NCBI GenBank assembly: GCA_016205145.1
Contig: JACQJH010000002.1
Span: 570,001 to 602,000 of the forward strand
From: Candidatus Iainarchaeum sp.
GTDB taxonomy: Archaea; Iainarchaeota; Iainarchaeia; Iainarchaeales; JACQJH01
Reading direction: 5' to 3'
Length of the DNA: 32,000 nucleotides
Below are positions 10,586 through 30,896 of the stretch, in pieces. The translations under genes and the position numbers were made by a program. The notes below the pieces were generated by a model that did no database searches, was not told the origin of the DNA, and saw only the letters and a program-made list of their open reading frames with translations. Positions within the stretch are counted from its first letter, which is position 1. Each line of letters opens with the position of its first letter.

Positions 10586-10744
10586 CTATGGTCCGACAAA
10601 GCCGCAGGAAGGGCAAACGTAAGGCTTGGCTGTCTGCCTTGAATGCAACGAGCGCACAATCCTTTCCTTCGAGCAGGCCGGGCACTTGAACTCTATGAAG
10701 TCGATTGTGACTTCCCTGTTGCTTGTCATGCAAACCTTCATCAT
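10586..10744 (-). CDS. Zn-ribbon RNA-binding protein (COG2888-like) conserved upstream of aEF-1beta
   Basis: 52 aa (MMKVCMTSNREVTIDFIEFKCPACSKERIVRSLHSRQTAKPYVCPSCGFVGP) with CPAC...CPSC, in the classic position just upstream of ef1b. The longer listed ORF 10586..11122 runs through a tRNA gene. Confidence 0.8.
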   Translation of the reverse strand: MMKVCMTSNREVTIDFIEFKCPACSKERIVRSLHSRQTAKPYVCPSCGFVGP

Positions 10745-10833
10745 TCCACGTCCGTCAAAAGTTAATAATAAAACTCTGCTCCACGCAATAATTAAAAAGC
10801 AAACCTCTGGCTTGCCAAAGCACGCCAGAACAA

Positions 10834-10988
10834 GGGCCTGTAGTCTAACGGACAGGACGGCCGGCTTCGGACCGCTGCCCTTTTCTTTTTCTTCGCAAGA
10901 AAAAGAAAAAGTGCAGGGCGCCCAAAAAGAAAGAAACGGGCAAACGGGAAGAGACCGGCTGATGGGGGTTCGAATCCCTCCGGGCCCG
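10834..10988 (+). tRNA. tRNA-Arg (anticodon TCG) with 83-nt intron at 37/38
   Basis: Acceptor GGGCCTG/CGGGCCC, D stem GTCT/GGAC, anticodon stem GCCGG/CCGGC, loop CTTCGGA, T arm GGGGG-TTCGAAT-CCCTC, discriminator G. Intron is 10871..10953. BHB: central helix CTTC/GAAG flanked by 3-nt bulges GGA and AGA, outer helix CCG/CGG. Confidence 0.85.
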
Positions 10989-11121
10989 CTTTCGCGCGGG
11001 CGAAACGAAACCAAGGCGTCTTGCTTTTGCAAGACGCCGGGTAGGTATAAACATAAGTAGTGTTCCGCGAAGCGCGAACACCACGCACGGGGTTTGCAAG
11101 GGGCGAAAGCCCCTGCGTGCA
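10989..11121 (+). repeat. Hairpin cassette between two copies of the tRNA-Arg 3' end
   Basis: Contains GCCCGC-TTTCGC-GCGGGC (overlapping the tRNA end), gaaaccaagg, GGCGTCTTGC-tttt-GCAAGACGCC, GTGTTC(C)GCG-aag-CGCGAACAC, and ggggtttgcaaggggcgaaagcccctgcgtgc. The module order parallels the elements at 19239-19420 and 28616-28748. Confidence 0.6.
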
Positions 11122-11138
11122 AATCCCTCCGGGCCCGA
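11088..11138 (+). other. tRNA 3'-half-like segment (second copy of aatccctccgggcccg)
   Basis: The 16-mer at 10973-10988 recurs exactly at 11122-11137. Removing the 25-nt hairpin 11095-11119 would give CGGGG-TTCAAAT-CCCTC-CGGGCCC-G, a near-canonical T arm plus acceptor strand. Confidence 0.5.
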
Positions 11139-11139
11139 A

Positions 11140-11194
11140 CCGGCGGTTTCGTCCGCCGGGTCCGACGATGGGTACACCGCTGCGCGCTGTACCC
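11140..11194 (+). repeat. TTTCGT-loop hairpin plus GGGTACA/TGTACCC hairpin (trailer module)
   Basis: CCGGCGG-TTTCGT-CCGCCGG at 11140-11159, then GGGTACA...TGTACCC at 11170-11194. The loop of the second hairpin holds cgctgcgcgctgt, which also occurs at 15628-15640. Confidence 0.6.
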
Positions 11195-11251
11195 TTCTGC
11201 TTTATTTTCGGTATTAACTGTTTCAGGGCGTGCGACGCCTAAAGCCCCCGC

Positions 11252-15470: not shown

Positions 15471-15675
15471 GGCGCTTTTAAGTTTCTTCGGAGGAGAGTG
15501 CGCTTCCCCTGACCGCCGTCATCGCCCGGCGGGTACGTTTTGTGGCATCCGCGCTGTTGCGGGATGCCACGCATGCTTTGCGGGGTTTGCAAGGGGTGCA
15601 ACCCCTGCACTCGCTTTGCTCGCATAGCGCTGCGCGCTGTTGCGCGATGGTTCGACGTGGCCTGAACTACGGCGC
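15471..15675. repeat. 205-nt non-coding block made of GC-rich hairpin modules
   Basis: Contains CCGCCG-tcatcgc-CGGCGG at 15513-15533, the 29-nt hairpin GTGGCATCCGCGCTGTTGCGGGATGCCAC at 15542-15570, ggggtttgcaaggggtgcaacccctgcac, ctcgctttgctc, and cgctgcgcgctgt. Each of these has a counterpart near a tRNA gene elsewhere in the window. Confidence 0.6.
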
Positions 15676-19238: not shown

Positions 19239-19420
19239 TTACTCGGCCTTTCACAACAGTGATGCCCCAGAATCCAAAGATTCTGGGCACGTCGCAAAAT
19301 CCAAGATTTTGCAACGAAGGCCTTAGTTTCGGACCCGGCGTTGCGAGCAACGCGAGCCAGCGGCACTTTACGTGCCGCGCGCACCAGACGGGCGTGACGT
19401 CTCGGCGGACGAAACCGCCG
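19239..19420 (-). repeat. Composite hairpin element (longest copy of the family)
   Basis: Read on the minus strand: CGGCGG-TTTCGT-CCGCCG, agacgtcacgcccgtct, CGGCAC-gtaaa-GTGCCG, GCGTTGC-tc-GCAACGC, then an 88-nt two-hairpin module (19248-19335), then gccgagtaa. Confidence 0.7.
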
Positions 19421-19422
19421 GC

Positions 19423-19893
19423 TTAAGCCACGTTCGGCTGCGCTTCGGCTTCGGTTGACAGCTGCTGGATTACCGGCCGCATGATTTCTGAATCGTCTTC
19501 CGCGGCAGGCTGGTCTGAAGCCTGTTCTGATTCGGCTTCAGCCGGTTCCGGCTGCTCGAAGCCTGGCTGTACGCCTTTCAGGCGCAAAGTCTTTGTGATG
19601 CCATTCGAACCCCACAAATAAGTGAAAGAAGTGCCCTCGTTTTTTGTTATCCAAACGCGCCTGTTGCCCGGATGTTCGTGGCCTTTCAAAGTCAGAAGGT
19701 TGCTGAATTCAACCAGCGCCTTTGAATCGTCAAGCTTTACAAGAGTGAAAACTGACGGCGACCCGTCTACTCCCGGCAAAAGTTCGCCGAAAGCCTTGCC
19801 CTGCTCGACTTCGACCTCGTTCTCGTCAACCTTCTTGTCGAAAGGCGGGCTCCACCTGCTCTGCACGTTCCTAAGCTCAAAAATCGCTTTCAT
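19423..19893 (-). CDS. Hypothetical protein with beta-rich N-domain and acidic disordered C-terminal tail
   Basis: 156 aa with C-terminus EQPEPAEAESEQASDQPAAEDDSEIM. No motif recognised. Divergent from nurA. Confidence 0.55.
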   Translation of the reverse strand: MKAIFELRNVQSRWSPPFDKKVDENEVEVEQGKAFGELLPGVDGSPSVFTLVKLDDSKALVEFSNLLTLKGHEHPGNRRVWITKNEGTSFTYLWGSNGITKTLRLKGVQPGFEQPEPAEAESEQASDQPAAEDDSEIMRPVIQQLSTEAEAQPNVA

Positions 19894-22984: not shown

Positions 22985-23084
22985 AAGAGTAAGCTTACTC
23001 GGCGTTGCGAGCAACGCGAGCCAGCGGCACTTTACGTGCCGCACGCACTAGACGGGCGTGACGTCTCGGCGGACGAAACCGCCG
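22985..23084 (-). repeat. Hairpin element, short copy (lacks the two-hairpin module)
   Basis: 23000-23084 matches 19336-19420 at 83 of 85 positions. It is preceded by the palindrome GAGTAAGCTTACTC. Confidence 0.75.
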
Positions 23085-23086
23085 CC

Positions 23087-23122
23087 GGGAAAACTTTTGA
23101 TAAAAGTTTTATCAAAAGTCAC
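23087..23122. repeat. 36-nt AT-rich palindromic motif downstream of tRNA-Gly(GCC)
   Basis: gggaaaaCTTTTGATAAAAgTTTTATCAAAAGtcac. Its reverse complement recurs at 30833-30868 with 35 of 36 identical. Confidence 0.75.
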
Positions 23123-23187
23123 CCGGCCGGCAGAGGGGCTGAGCCTTGCGAAGCCCCTCAACGTCGCACCAACCGGGCGATGACGGT

Positions 23188-23345
23188 TGCGACCACCGGG
23201 AGTCGAACCCGGACCTGAACCTGATTGCAGCCCTGCGCCTCCAAAAAAGAAAATTTTTTTCTTTTGTGGGAAAACACCTTTTTCTTTTTCAAAAAAGAAA
23301 AAGGGCCCTGGCAAGGTCCAATCCTAACCGCTAGACCATGGTCGC
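23188..23345 (-). tRNA. tRNA-Gly (anticodon GCC) with 86-nt intron at 37/38
   Basis: Acceptor GCGACCA/TGGTCGC, D stem GTCT/GGAT, anticodon stem GGACC/GGTTC, spliced loop TTGCCAA, T arm CCGGG-TTCGACT-CCCGG, discriminator A. Intron is 23223..23308. BHB: central helix TTGC/GCAA, bulges CAG and TCA, outer helix GGCCC/GGGCT. Confidence 0.8.
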
Positions 23346-26157: not shown

Positions 26158-26224
26158 GCAATGCAAATTCCAGGAATTTGCCTGATTCTAGCGGCCGAAA
26201 AAAATTGACGGAAGTGGTTTGCAA

Positions 26225-27631
26225 ATGGCAAAAACTTACATAAACAACGTAAAGTACATGATAAAGGCCAAGTTTGAGATAAACGGCGTCGTGGACAAGC
26301 ATGACATCATCGGCGCGGTTTTCGGCCAGTCCGAAGGCCTTATCGGCGACGACCTCGATTTGAGGGAACTGCAGAAGAACGGCAAAATCGGCAGGATTGA
26401 AATCAACAGCACCACTGTTGAAGGAAAAACCGCCGGCGAACTTTTTGTTCCAAGCTCGATGGACATGGTCAAGACAAGCATCCTTGCGGCCGCAATTGAA
26501 ACTGTTGAAAAGGTCGGCCCCTGGGAGTCGAAATTCGAGATTCTCACGATTGACGACACTCGCAGCGCGAAACGCAAGGAAATAATCGAAAGGTCGAAGG
26601 AACTGCTGAAAAAGCTGAACATGACATTACCGCAGGCGCAGGAGCTCGCGGAAGAGATAAAGGAGGACGTCTGGGCAGCCGACATAGTTTCTTACGGCAC
26701 GGACAACCTTTCAGCCGGCCCCGACATTGACAGTTCAAACGAAATAATCCTGGTCGAAGGCAGGGCGGATGTCCTGAATCTTTTGCGCAACCAGGTGAGA
26801 AACGTGATTGCGGTCGAAGGCTCCACAGTAAGCCCGACAATAATAGAGCTGTGCTCGAAAAAAAGCATCACGGTTTTCTTTGACGGCGACCGGGGCGGGC
26901 TGTTGAACCTGAGAAGGCTCCAGCAGTCGGCGAAAGTCGACTTTGTCGCAAAGGCGCCGGAAGGCAAGGAAGTCGAAGAGCTCACGAGAAAGGAAATCGT
27001 CATGGCGCTCCGCAAAAAAATTCCGATAAGCGAAATGAACCTCGGTCCAGAGCAGCCTTCAACAGGCTTTGAGGAAAGGTCCTTTGACAGGCCAATGCGC
27101 TCCGACATGCATGGCGGCATGAGAAGCAGGGGTCCTGGAAGGTTTTCACCGCGCCCACAGCACGGGCCGAGAACAGGCGGCTTCGGCGGAAGACCTCCGT
27201 TTGAGCCGAGGCAGGGCTTCGGCGGAAGGCCAAGCAGGTTTTCCTCACGCCCACAGAGAGGCGGCGGAAGGCCGGGCGCGCCGAGAATGAGAATGTCTTT
27301 CTCGCGCACAACCGAAGCGCCCGAGAAAAGGGAAATACCGGCAAACCTGCCGCCGGAAGCGGCGGAATTCTCCGATGCAATGCGCGAAATAAAGGATTCC
27401 TTGAAGGCAAGGCTCCTGGACTCGCAGAAAAACGCGATCGCGGAAGTGCCTGTAAGGGATTTGCTGAAGACAATCAAATCCGAAAAGGGCATTGACACGG
27501 TCATTTTCGACGGTGTCGTGACCAAAAGGCTTGTTGACGAGGCAGTGAAAAGCGGGGTCAAAACCATTGTCGGCGTTAAAAAGGGCAGCGTTCCGGAAAC
27601 ACCGGAAATCAAAATCATAACGCTGTCTTAA
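26225..27631 (+). CDS. dnaG: Archaeal DnaG (Toprim; exosome-associated primase homologue) with RG-rich insert
   Basis: N-terminus YMIKAKFEINGVVDKHDIIGAVFGQSEGLIGDDLDLRELQKNGKIGRIEI is typical of archaeal DnaG. Toprim region EIILVEGRADVLNL...FFDGDRGG. RG/P-rich low-complexity stretch at about nt 27085-27300. Confidence 0.85.
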   Translation: MAKTYINNVKYMIKAKFEINGVVDKHDIIGAVFGQSEGLIGDDLDLRELQKNGKIGRIEINSTTVEGKTAGELFVPSSMDMVKTSILAAAIETVEKVGPWESKFEILTIDDTRSAKRKEIIERSKELLKKLNMTLPQAQELAEEIKEDVWAADIVSYGTDNLSAGPDIDSSNEIILVEGRADVLNLLRNQVRNVIAVEGSTVSPTIIELCSKKSITVFFDGDRGGLLNLRRLQQSAKVDFVAKAPEGKEVEELTRKEIVMALRKKIPISEMNLGPEQPSTGFEERSFDRPMRSDMHGGMRSRGPGRFSPRPQHGPRTGGFGGRPPFEPRQGFGGRPSRFSSRPQRGGGRPGAPRMRMSFSRTTEAPEKREIPANLPPEAAEFSDAMREIKDSLKARLLDSQKNAIAEVPVRDLLKTIKSEKGIDTVIFDGVVTKRLVDEAVKSGVKTIVGVKKGSVPETPEIKIITLS

Positions 27632-28542: not shown

Positions 28543-28615
28543 GGGCCCGTGGTCCAGCGGTTACGACGACGCCTTTACAAGGCGTAAGTCGGCGGTTCGA
28601 TCCCGCCCGGGCCCA
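28543..28615 (+). tRNA. tRNA-Val (anticodon TAC), intron-less
   Basis: Acceptor GGGCCCG/CGGGCCC, anticodon stem ACGCC/GGCGT, loop TTTACAA, T arm GGCGG-TTCGATC-CCGCC, discriminator A. No encoded CCA. Confidence 0.9.
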
Positions 28616-28748
28616 AGCAGCCGATTTCGTCCGCAGCCGTCACGTCCGGCGGGTACGAACCAAGGCTTATCATGGCAAAATCGCGATTTTGCCATGTGCC
28701 CGGAATCTTGGGATTCCGGTGCATGCTGCTGCAATAAGCCGAGTAAGC
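28616..28748 (+). repeat. Hairpin element directly abutting the tRNA-Val 3' end
   Basis: ccgatttcgtccgc, ccgtcacgtccggcgggtacg, then gaaccaagg, hairpin CATGGCAAAATC/GATTTTGCCATG (28671-28696), hairpin TGCCCGGAATC/GATTCCGG(T)GCA (28697-28723), and gccgagtaagc. Colinear with the minus strand of 19239-19420. Confidence 0.7.
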
Positions 28749-28809
28749 AGTACCAAAAATTAGATTGCAAGAGGCCGAAGCCCCCCCCATTGCATTTGAA
28801 ACAAACCGC

Positions 28810-30588: not shown

Positions 30589-30632
30589 CAGAACCTACAC
30601 CGGCCGGAAAGCGTTCCGAGCGAAGCGAGGCA

Positions 30633-30686
30633 GCCCGATGAAGCGAAGCGAATCGGGCGTCGGACTCGGCGGACGAAATCGCCGAG
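30633..30686 (+). repeat. Two GC hairpins forming the 5' flank of tRNA-Gly(TCC)
   Basis: GCCCGAT-gaagcgaagcga-ATCGGGC at 30633-30658 and CTCGGCG-gacgaaat-CGCCGAG at 30665-30686. The second is the reverse-orientation version of the TTTCGT-loop hairpin, and its last base is tRNA position 1. Confidence 0.65.
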
Positions 30687-30796
30687 CGCCTGTAGCGTAG
30701 TGGTAGCGTTCGACCCTTCCAAAACTTTTTTAGAAAAAAAGTTTGCAAAAAAGTCGAGGTGAGGTCGCGGCCCGGGTTCGACTCCCGGCGGGCGCA
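30686..30796 (+). tRNA. tRNA-Gly (anticodon TCC) with 40-nt intron at 37/38
   Basis: Acceptor GCGCCTG/CGGGCGC, D stem GCGT/GCGT (wobbles), anticodon stem CGACC/GGTCG, spliced loop CTTCCAA, T arm CCGGG-TTCGACT-CCCGG, discriminator A. Intron is 30722..30761, with central helix CTTC/GAGG and 3' bulge TGA. The 5' side is less regular, so this is a relaxed BHB. Confidence 0.8.
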
Positions 30797-30798
30797 TT

Positions 30799-30825
30799 GG
30801 CCCATCGAGCAAAGCGAGATGGGCC
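30799..30825 (+). repeat. Trailer hairpin of tRNA-Gly(TCC)
   Basis: GGCCCATC-gagcaaagcga-GATGGGCC. The loop 12-mer gagcaaagcgag is the reverse complement of 15610-15621. Confidence 0.55.
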
Positions 30826-30832
30826 TATTGCC

Positions 30833-30868
30833 GTGAATTTTGATAAAACTTTTATCAAAAGTTTTCCC
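30833..30868. repeat. 36-nt AT-rich palindromic motif downstream of tRNA-Gly(TCC)
   Basis: gtgaaTTTTGATAAAAcTTTTATCAAAAgttttccc, the reverse complement of 23087-23122 at 35 of 36 positions. It may double as the TATA region for rnp4 (ATG 30897). Confidence 0.75.
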
Positions 30869-30896
30869 GACGGGCGCAACTAAAAAATTGGTTCTG

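Follow-up and report, generated by a model that had tools for sequence, protein, structure and literature searches.

The window analysed here is a stretch of 32,000 nt, C2:570001-602000, from an archaeal genome (G000) of 1.25 Mb that comprises two contigs (C1 and C2) and has a G+C content of 51%. Across the whole window, no Rfam family was matched at the gathering score except three tRNAs, tRNA-Val, tRNA-Gly(TCC), and tRNA-Arg(TCG), and ARAGORN reported tRNA-Val only. A fourth gene, tRNA-Gly(GCC), was missed by both programs and was recovered using a purpose-made scan for a T-arm with a matching acceptor stem, which also added six other intron-bearing tRNAs and brought the genome total to 43. 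Standard tRNA finders missed 8 of these 43 tRNAs (long-intron tRNAs). The tRNA genes of the window are as follows.

10834-10988, plus strand: tRNA-Arg(TCG) with a long intron (>80 nt); Rfam RF00005, 47.1 bits; its last 5 nt are the 5' arm of the next head
23188-23345, minus strand: tRNA-Gly(GCC) with a long intron; acceptor/T-arm scan
28543-28615, plus strand: tRNA-Val(TAC); ARAGORN and Rfam
30686-30796, plus strand: tRNA-Gly(TCC) with an intron of ~40 nt; Rfam

The tRNA introns have a repeat of their own. Oligopyrimidine/oligopurine hairpins of the form CTTTTTCTTT...AAAGAAAAAG are confined in G000 to tRNA introns (14/14 hits, both strands counted); they occur in seven intron-bearing tRNAs genome-wide and lie at 10871-10953 and 23223-23308 in the window. 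Similar hairpins are dispersed intergenic repeats in three other genomes (G029, G077, and G062). Elsewhere on the same contig, a candidate tRNA with a 325-nt span (C2:336244-336568) has CCA in its anticodon region (Trp) and contains, in reverse, an alternative form of the hairpin described below (C2:336526, minus strand); this span implies a putative very long intron holding an element. ORFs of 98-178 codons on both strands cross tRNA-Arg and the repeat array behind it (window 10586-11177). GC-rich repeats generate spurious ORFs of this kind over tRNA flanks, and a gene caller could annotate them.

The first-pass annotation of this DNA had described a GC-rich hairpin that recurs at six sites abutting tRNA ends. 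This hairpin is the conserved head of a short (~60-130 nt), non-coding, modular repeat family. The head consists of a covarying 5-7 bp stem and a UUYCGN loop that can pair with CGR(AA) 3-4 nt downstream, and it is followed by a second covarying hairpin of one of several interchangeable types. Genome-wide, 45 hairpins carry the loop TTTCG[T/C]; their arms differ from copy to copy and are always complementary, and a fixed linker and a second hairpin of one of four kinds follow. An alternative head form has a 5-bp stem and a loop of 7-8 nt, for example, UCACGCC or UCAUCGCC. A head covariance model (R1) returned 109 genome hits at E<=1, with E values down to 1e-8, and our census, which includes the alternative form, stands at ~125 heads in G000. 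Head types are found in many combinations with second-hairpin types (a, b, c, and d), indicating that the modules reassort. The copies and related features of the window are listed below.

10984-11010, plus strand: head, variant form; stem GCCCGC/GCGGGC, loop UUUCGC, linker GAAA, then the loop-pairing CGAAA (pseudoknot)
11015-11047, plus strand: second hairpin, b-type (10 bp), with the conserved tail GGGUAGGUA; fold z = -5.4 for 10984-11047
11089-11121, plus strand: third module, H3; GGGG...CCCCU hairpin within a UUUGCA/UGCAAA stem; 29 genome copies
11122-11137, plus strand: exact 16-nt direct repeat of the tRNA-Arg 3' end (10973-10988), flanking a 133-nt insert (10989-11121)
11140-11165, plus strand: head; 7-bp stem CCGGCGG/CCGCCGG, loop UUUCGU, linker GUC, CGA; begins 2 nt past the dead tRNA-Arg tail
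11170-11209, plus strand: second hairpin, a-type (GGGUACA...UGUACCC), tail UUCUGC, T-rich run; z = -3.2
15514-15537, plus strand: alternative head; stem CGCCG/CGGCG, 8-nt loop UCAUCGCC (includes a recurring 14-mer), linker GGUA-CG
19336-19420, minus strand: cassette of head, alternative head, and two hairpins; the head lies 2 nt past the stop of ORF 19423-19893
23000-23084, minus strand: near-identical second copy of the 19336-19420 cassette; distal array module behind tRNA-Gly(GCC)
23118-23189, minus strand: alternative head (CAACCG-UCAUCGCC-CGGUUG) and c-type hairpin, starting from the tRNA-Gly(GCC) discriminator
28620-28749, plus strand: degenerate head remnant (28620-28634), alternative head (28635-28661), and b-type hairpin with a nested two-hairpin insertion
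30589-30686, minus strand: reverse-orientation element; its head (30665-30686) overlaps position 1 of tRNA-Gly(TCC) by 1 nt
30797-30878, plus strand: 68-nt insert of a second family (GC hairpin and AT-rich palindrome), then a 14-nt repeat (30865-30878, 1 mismatch) of the tRNA-Gly 3' end (30783-30796)

An 18-mer core of the hairpin is present exactly at 11141-11158 (plus strand), 19403-19420 (minus strand), and 23067-23084 (minus strand), and with one mismatch at 30667-30684 (minus strand). These four core matches at 0-1 mismatch compare with 0.04 expected in the window, an expectation that was calculated for <=3 mismatches. The variant GCCCGC-TTTCGC-GCGGGC at 10984-11001 overlaps the last 5 nt of tRNA-Arg(TCG). 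The coordinates first reported for the six hairpin sites are confirmed, with the qualification that the site at 28620-28634 is merely a degenerate remnant (5-bp stem, one C-C mismatch); the intact head behind tRNA-Val is the variant at 28635-28661. The reversed head said to be fused to position 1 of tRNA-Gly(TCC) is indeed there. Two of the six sites had been wrongly taken to abut tRNAs. The hairpin at 19403-19420 adjoins no tRNA and instead follows a 156-aa ORF (19423-19893, minus strand), and that at 23067-23084 lies 104 nt from tRNA-Gly(GCC), as module three of an array. Likewise, the 14-mer at 15516-15529 (plus strand) and 23173-23186 (minus strand), which had been read as a second conserved piece following the hairpin, is actually the loop and 3' arm of the alternative head form.

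Both helices of the repeat bear the marks of a conserved fold. In an alignment of 58 head sequences, 5 of the 6 stem pairs showed double-sided changes; picking the seeds for perfect stems makes the percentage of pairing in this alignment circular but does not affect the diversity of pair types. Detection of the b-type second hairpin relied solely on its unpaired flanks, and this hairpin therefore provides an unbiased demonstration of selection for the fold: across 47 copies, 98.5% of positions are paired over 10 bp, and 6 of the 10 pairs have double-sided changes. The unpaired motifs are invariant, and in the head, the invariant positions are those of the loop and the linker.

These two invariant parts are complementary to each other. 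The loop UUUCG can pair with CGAAA located 3-4 nt past the stem, with an invariant core of 3 bp (U-C-G/C-G-A). Heads with the loop UUCCG carry a CGGAA linker in G000, such that the U->C change in the loop is matched by an A->G change in the linker, and the same compensatory change recurs in G029 and G077. As for alternative heads, the C or U that follows CG in the loop is matched, in nearly all copies, by the G or A that precedes CG in the linker. One position flanking the loop-linker core was paired in 74 of 86 distinct heads, compared with 58.5 in permuted sets (0/5000 permutations reached 74). Pairing at the remaining flanking positions was not significant in these 86 heads, and in the a, c, and d types, the outer pairs fail and the helix is limited to 3 bp. 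Collectively, these comparisons suggest that the head loop and linker likely form a small H-type pseudoknot, either in RNA or in a DNA strand.

Several other descriptions of the repeat were rejected. Mimicry of a T-arm (GGUUCGAAACC) does not accommodate the variation of the linker (with sequences such as GUGCCGA and GGAGCGA), and the pseudoknot is favoured by the linker's A-to-G change, which has its counterpart in the loop. Punctuation of RNase P cleavage by a tRNA-like pseudoknot was set aside by reasoning alone, since H-type geometry would move the cut from the 5' foot of the stem into the loop. On inspection, the K-turn consensus did not fit the sequences conserved on either side of the second hairpin. 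A generic detector (perfect stem, CG loop, and one pseudoknot pair) gave 536 hits in the real sequence and 556 in the reversed sequence, and was replaced by loop-specific lists and the covariance model.

The distal parts of the repeat differ among types. As for the layout of an intrinsic terminator, in which a T-run directly follows a hairpin, tails of the a-type run into a T-rich stretch, and those of the b-type do not. The c-type tail (CUGCCGGCCGGGUGAC) has complementarity to both the 3' arm and the loop of the alternative head (window 23100-23189, minus strand), with the result that the minimum-energy fold swaps the head hairpin for a long closing helix; this predicted helix could represent either another conformation of the unit or a terminal inverted repeat that is imperfect. 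Partial complementarity between tail and head is seen in c-type copies only, and in most copies terminal inverted repeats are not evident. The H3 module (29 copies) consists of GGGG, UUGCA, and then an AGGGG-loop-CCCCU hairpin with a GCG bulge. It often lies behind a-type or b-type units and is usually preceded by ATTAAA...TTTC, and it might carry its own promoter-like box.

The heads are placed with precision at the ends of tRNA genes. Twenty-seven of the 125 heads start between -5 and +3 nt from a tRNA boundary, compared with 0.35 expected under random placement in non-coding DNA (~77-fold, P ~1e-42). The motif is thus commoner beside tRNAs genome-wide, as the first-pass annotation had supposed, and the link with tRNA ends holds. 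Of the docked heads, 22 lie in sense past the discriminator at tRNA 3' ends (22 of the 43 tRNAs), and 5 are reversed at tRNA 5' ends, each exactly 1 nt from position 1. The most frequent start is 0-3 nt past the discriminator, and on both sides of the tRNA gene, the commonest spacing from the end of the acceptor helix is a single nucleotide. When only the heads within 300 nt of a tRNA are considered (n = 41), 27 abut it versus 0.6 expected.

Docking extends to other gene boundaries. Twelve heads, including the one at 19403-19420, start within -2 to +2 nt of a same-strand ORF stop codon (2.5 expected, P ~9e-6), and one copy begins at the start of the intron, beside the anticodon loop, of a second tRNA-Gly(TCC) gene (C1:450506-450685). 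Among the copies that come first in an array, 80% follow the 3' end of a gene in sense (40 versus 10). Regular in-frame insertion into genes was rejected: most of the 30 heads located "inside" crude ORFs are near the ends of over-long ORF calls, and one case is real. We also rejected the idea that the 5' arm of the head is copied from the target at insertion, which holds at the two tRNA-Arg genes only; the same stems elsewhere have unrelated flanks. Two tRNA-Ala isoacceptor genes (C1:486088-486160 and C1:606521-606593) each have a reversed c-type element on the 5' side and an ACGCGC-headed b-type element on the 3' side, and the head types and second-hairpin stems differ between the two genes. 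This arrangement points either to duplication of the whole unit followed by compensated divergence or to conversion between copies.

The position of the elements relative to transcription signals bears on whether they are transcribed with the tRNAs. The first T-run downstream lies at a median of 186 nt (minimum 44) for head-docked tRNAs, compared with a median of 40 nt for the others, and falls behind the whole array. The nearest TATA-like box upstream is at least 114 nt away from tRNAs with a reversed 5' head, compared with ~39 nt for other tRNAs. Because the elements lie between a tRNA gene and its own T-run or TATA signals, they should belong to the primary transcripts, and docked heads are probably inside pre-tRNAs, as judged from the layout of these signals. 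Genes for both processing enzymes are present: RNase Z at C2:508514-509410 (347.7 bits) and the RNA of RNase P at C1:598632-598912 (121.7 bits). These endonucleases act through recognition of the tRNA body; structured flanks, even a stem that shares 5 nt with the acceptor end, can therefore be tolerated without having to be a requirement.

Five inserts, drawn from the knotted-head family and the second family, are flanked by direct target repeats of 14-20 nt. At tRNA-Arg(TCG), the 133-nt insert (10989-11121) lies between exact 16-nt repeats (10973-10988 and 11122-11137). At tRNA-Arg(TCT), on the other contig, the same element type is bracketed by that gene's own, different 3' end (15/16 nt). 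Each repeat matches its own tRNA from end to end, which excludes an integrase att site, one arm of which would come from the element. At both genes, an older head that was formerly docked at the tRNA end lies beyond the outer repeat; the newer insert between the tRNA and this older head indicates that each new copy comes in next to the tRNA and displaces its predecessors outward. Another of the five inserts lies in a protein gene at C1:74156-74226, where a head and c-type hairpin with a perfect 20-nt flanking repeat sit in the last codons of an opposite-strand ORF, whose nine-residue tail has been replaced by ten element-encoded residues.

The duplications at four tRNAs measure 14, ~15, 16, and 16 nt, and that at the protein gene measures 20 nt. 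The tRNA repeats span positions 58-60 to 73, which constitute the continuous 3' strand of the acceptor/T-arm helix, and have no CCA, indicating that they were copied from DNA and not from mature tRNA. Clear target duplications accompany only ~5 of the 125 copies, and a loose flanking-repeat scan of the heads detected no enrichment (8% versus 11% at random positions). The second element family, 68-69 nt in length, combines a GC hairpin (GGCCCAUC...GAUGGGCC type) with the AT-rich palindrome TTTTGATAAAACTTTTATCAAAA and is found at window 30797-30864, window 23095-23125, C2:460162-460230, and C1:450444-450505 (minus strand). It lies directly behind tRNA-Gly(TCC) and tRNA-Ser (C2:460161), and 14-15 nt of the tRNA end are repeated after it. 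Its sequence is unrelated to the knotted element, and its docking site and duplication length are the same.

We then compared 40 relatives, each representing a different family of the same order and sharing ~65-70% gene identity with G000. Head hits at E<=0.01 numbered 84 in G000, 30 in G029, 9 in G032, 6 in G011, 5 in G034, and 0-2 in the others. In a phylum sample, 22 of 151 genomes had a hit at E<=1e-4; the distribution is patchy, the hits cluster in a small number of families, and at this threshold none came from three families that were each sampled with 12-15 genomes. Docking recurs in the genomes that carry the heads. Of the 30 heads of G029, 9 lie against tRNA ends, 6 of them on the 3' side and 3, in reverse, on the 5' side, and G011 has 3 docked heads and 1 at an intron start. 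The stem sequences of G029 differ from those of G000, and the loop, linker, and docking are alike. One locus of G029 (C1:199799-200000, L072) holds three perfect tandem 85-nt units, each with a head, an a-like hairpin, and a third hairpin, which suggests that the knotted-head family can also amplify in tandem.

Our comparison of occupied and empty sites covered distant tRNA-Val orthologues and the congeneric pair G029 and G077. In four relatives, the tRNA-Val orthologue carries no element, and its flank goes straight into other sequence, with a T-run in two cases. At the tRNA-Trp locus of G029 and G077, the flanks are 87-93% identical, and a head is docked at the same site in both genomes. The stem and the loop-linker helix differ between the two by compensating changes, the second hairpin is entirely different, and G077 has ~1.2 kb of extra DNA, absent from G029, that ends in a reversed element. 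The locus shows turnover of the element, and gain or loss, within a short time.

Among candidate mobilising enzymes, reverse transcriptase (PF00078) had no match in G000, G029, G032, G011, or G034. Y1 transposase (PF01797) had no match in G000; among the element-bearing genomes, solely G034 has one, so that it is absent from 4 of the 5 genomes with at least 5 head copies. In G000, TnpB-type nucleases gave nothing beyond sub-threshold hits. The single Cas1 (PF01867) hit in G000 is sub-threshold (12.6 bits) and meaningless, arising from a Toprim protein of 470 aa encoded in the window (26219-27631; PF13662, E = 1.9e-7). Across the 41 genomes, neither reverse transcriptase, Y1 transposase, nor Cas1 co-occurs with the element. 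Therefore, the REP/RAYT, SINE/TPRT, and casposase models each fail their defining test, though features are shared with all three. Two tyrosine recombinase genes are present in G000, one of them (C1:505011-505475) next to a tRNA cluster.

We favour the explanation, to which we give somewhat better than even chances, that the knotted repeat is a structure-dependent, non-autonomous insertion element with gene ends as its targets, and that it is transcribed as part of pre-tRNA flanks. Taken together, the pattern agrees better with an insertion element, which is reasonably probable, than with a dedicated processing signal, which is rather less so. Insertion would involve staggered cuts at the gene end and at a point 14-20 bp within the gene, which would rebuild the gene end and let the gene survive. 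Elements lodged between a tRNA and its displaced promoter or T-run would form long structured leaders and trailers, to be removed by RNase P and RNase Z. Covariation of the stems may reflect selection on the fold by the mobilising machinery or turnover through conversion between copies. Judging from the searches above, the mobilising enzyme is not a recognisable reverse transcriptase, Y1 transposase, TnpB, or Cas1 in G000.

The strongest competitor, which we consider unlikely although credible, is essentially the idea of the first-pass annotation: an RNA module selected by the host, in which the second hairpin, together with the knotted head, would mark or shield the 3' ends of RNAs behind tRNAs and mRNAs, for instance by blocking 3'-5' exonucleases, aiding processing or termination, or serving as a protein-binding platform. 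Strong structural covariation and exact docking are equally expected of such a module. It would account for the predominance of sense copies behind gene 3' ends, for head starts 0-3 nt past a discriminator or stop codon, for the location of elements upstream of the first T-run and the T-run of a-type tails, and for the covariation of both helices and part of the pseudoknot beside invariant unpaired motifs. At both tRNA-Arg genes, moreover, the 3' arm of the head matches a 5' arm supplied by the tRNA, and architecture and docking are maintained across families of the order. However, just 22 of the 43 tRNAs and ~1% of protein genes carry the module, it was not detected in most of the related genomes searched, and their tRNA-Val orthologues do without it. 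A host module has no place for reverse docking at tRNA 5' ends or for a copy inserted in the coding 3' end of an ORF; stacked arrays and target duplications are marks left by insertion; and with RNase Z and RNase P present, no such aid is needed. What stands of the proposed pre-tRNA processing role is the link to tRNA ends and the probable presence of the elements in precursors. A dedicated role is not supported, given that the same head occurs at protein-gene stops, reversed at tRNA 5' ends, in a tRNA intron, in a coding 3' end, and in stacked arrays with 14-20 nt duplications, and that it turns over between congeners.

The insertion-element explanation has a bolder form, which we regard as speculative and rather doubtful: that these repeats represent a new class of archaeal mobile element with structure-guided insertion. 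The enzyme would be an unrecognised one, or host nucleases would act on tRNA:DNA hybrids or extruded tRNA-gene structures, nicking exactly at mature-tRNA boundaries, and the element might be partly domesticated as a pre-tRNA flank structure. In structure-guided insertion, the head would be joined, on the head strand, ~1 nt past the acceptor helix of a cloverleaf, whether that of the sense tRNA or of its antisense image; the head junction would correspond to the RNase Z cut position, and joining could occur at an intron boundary too. At least two unrelated cargo families have their tRNA site and duplication length in common, and G000 yielded no known transposase family.

A further alternative, that the repeats are scars of site-specific recombination (leftover attL/attR junctions and fragments of integrase-type elements that use tRNA 3' ends), is in our view very improbable. 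The direct repeats of tRNA 3' ends extend into the T-loop and resemble att cores, and one of the two tyrosine recombinase genes is beside a tRNA cluster; yet the tRNA-Arg repeats copy their own tRNA entirely, where an att site would have an element-derived arm, and the inserts are merely 68-133 nt. The same heads are also present at ~100 non-tRNA sites, one of which has the 20-nt repeat inside an ORF, and the head is a covarying folded unit rather than decaying debris. Finally, chance recurrence of GC-rich palindromes or an artefact of composition, for which the loose detector speaks with its similar yield in reversed and real sequence, is refuted by the strong over-representation of specific loops, the matches in the window (6 versus 0.04 expected), the E values of the covariance model, and the docking statistics, in agreement with the original judgement that the recurrence is not chance.

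If the insertion-element explanation is correct, a streamlined DPANN archaeon expresses half of its tRNA genes with leaders or trailers that are long, folded, and parasitic, and endonucleolytic tRNA maturation creates safe landing sites for selfish DNA. An undescribed archaeal insertion mechanism would be indicated by the exact docking, by the duplications of 14-20 nt with which the gene end is restored, and by the absence of a known transposase. With tRNA introns, leaders, and trailers as its entry points, such a mechanism would also bear on how archaeal tRNA introns are gained.

No description of a knotted hairpin repeat family was found in those portions of the literature that our search covered, and the repeat shares traits with several known systems. 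Like REP/BIME (REPIN) sequences, it consists of short, extragenic, GC-rich hairpins in many copies, which form mosaic arrays (125 heads; a, b, c, d, and H3 modules), often lie behind genes, and are co-transcribed. Unlike REPs, which are mobilised by RAYT, it has no RAYT in G000, has a pseudoknot-forming loop, docks exactly at tRNA termini, and has long target duplications, which REPs lack. The GTAG/CGTC foot, a REP feature, is not conserved in the knotted repeat, where variation affects the stem and the two alignment columns that precede it on the 5' side.

With SINEs and TPRT retroposons, the repeat has in common its small, structured, non-coding form, variable long target duplications, and lineage-specific bursts. 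It differs in that genomes with at least 5 copies lack a reverse transcriptase, in that it has no A/T-rich 3' tail, and in that the tRNA tails duplicated beside it have no CCA. Rickettsia palindromic elements (RPE) and prokaryotic MITEs are likewise selfish hairpin repeats of reduced genomes that can sit in coding ends. MITE duplications are typically 2-10 bp, whereas those of the knotted element are 14-20 nt; no related IS transposase was found, terminal inverted repeats are not evident in most copies, and the preference for tRNA termini is strong.

The head itself may resemble pseudoknotted tRNA-like structures such as the TYMV 3' end, in that its 6-7 bp stem and 3-6 bp loop-linker helix could form one stack of ~12 bp. 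In b-type copies, the loop-linker helix is followed by A-CCA or A-CUA (CUA in 16/47). In contrast to the TYMV structure, CCA is not conserved, lies internally and not at the 3' terminus, and is absent from the a, c, and d types.

In target choice, there is a parallel with casposons. The casposon of Aciduliprofundum boonei, with its Cas1 casposase, integrates at the 3' end of tRNA-Pro with a 15-bp duplication (PMC5137440). The likeness extends to insertion at tRNA 3' ends, duplications of 14-16 bp, a T-loop at the inner edge of the target, and arrays formed by repeated insertion. However, the knotted elements are non-coding and only ~70-130 nt long, with no Cas1 in G000 and no correlation with Cas1 across the relatives. 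One of their duplications, at a protein gene, measures 20 bp. The register also differs: the casposon duplication overlaps the tRNA by 5 bp, whereas that of the knotted element lies wholly inside the tRNA.
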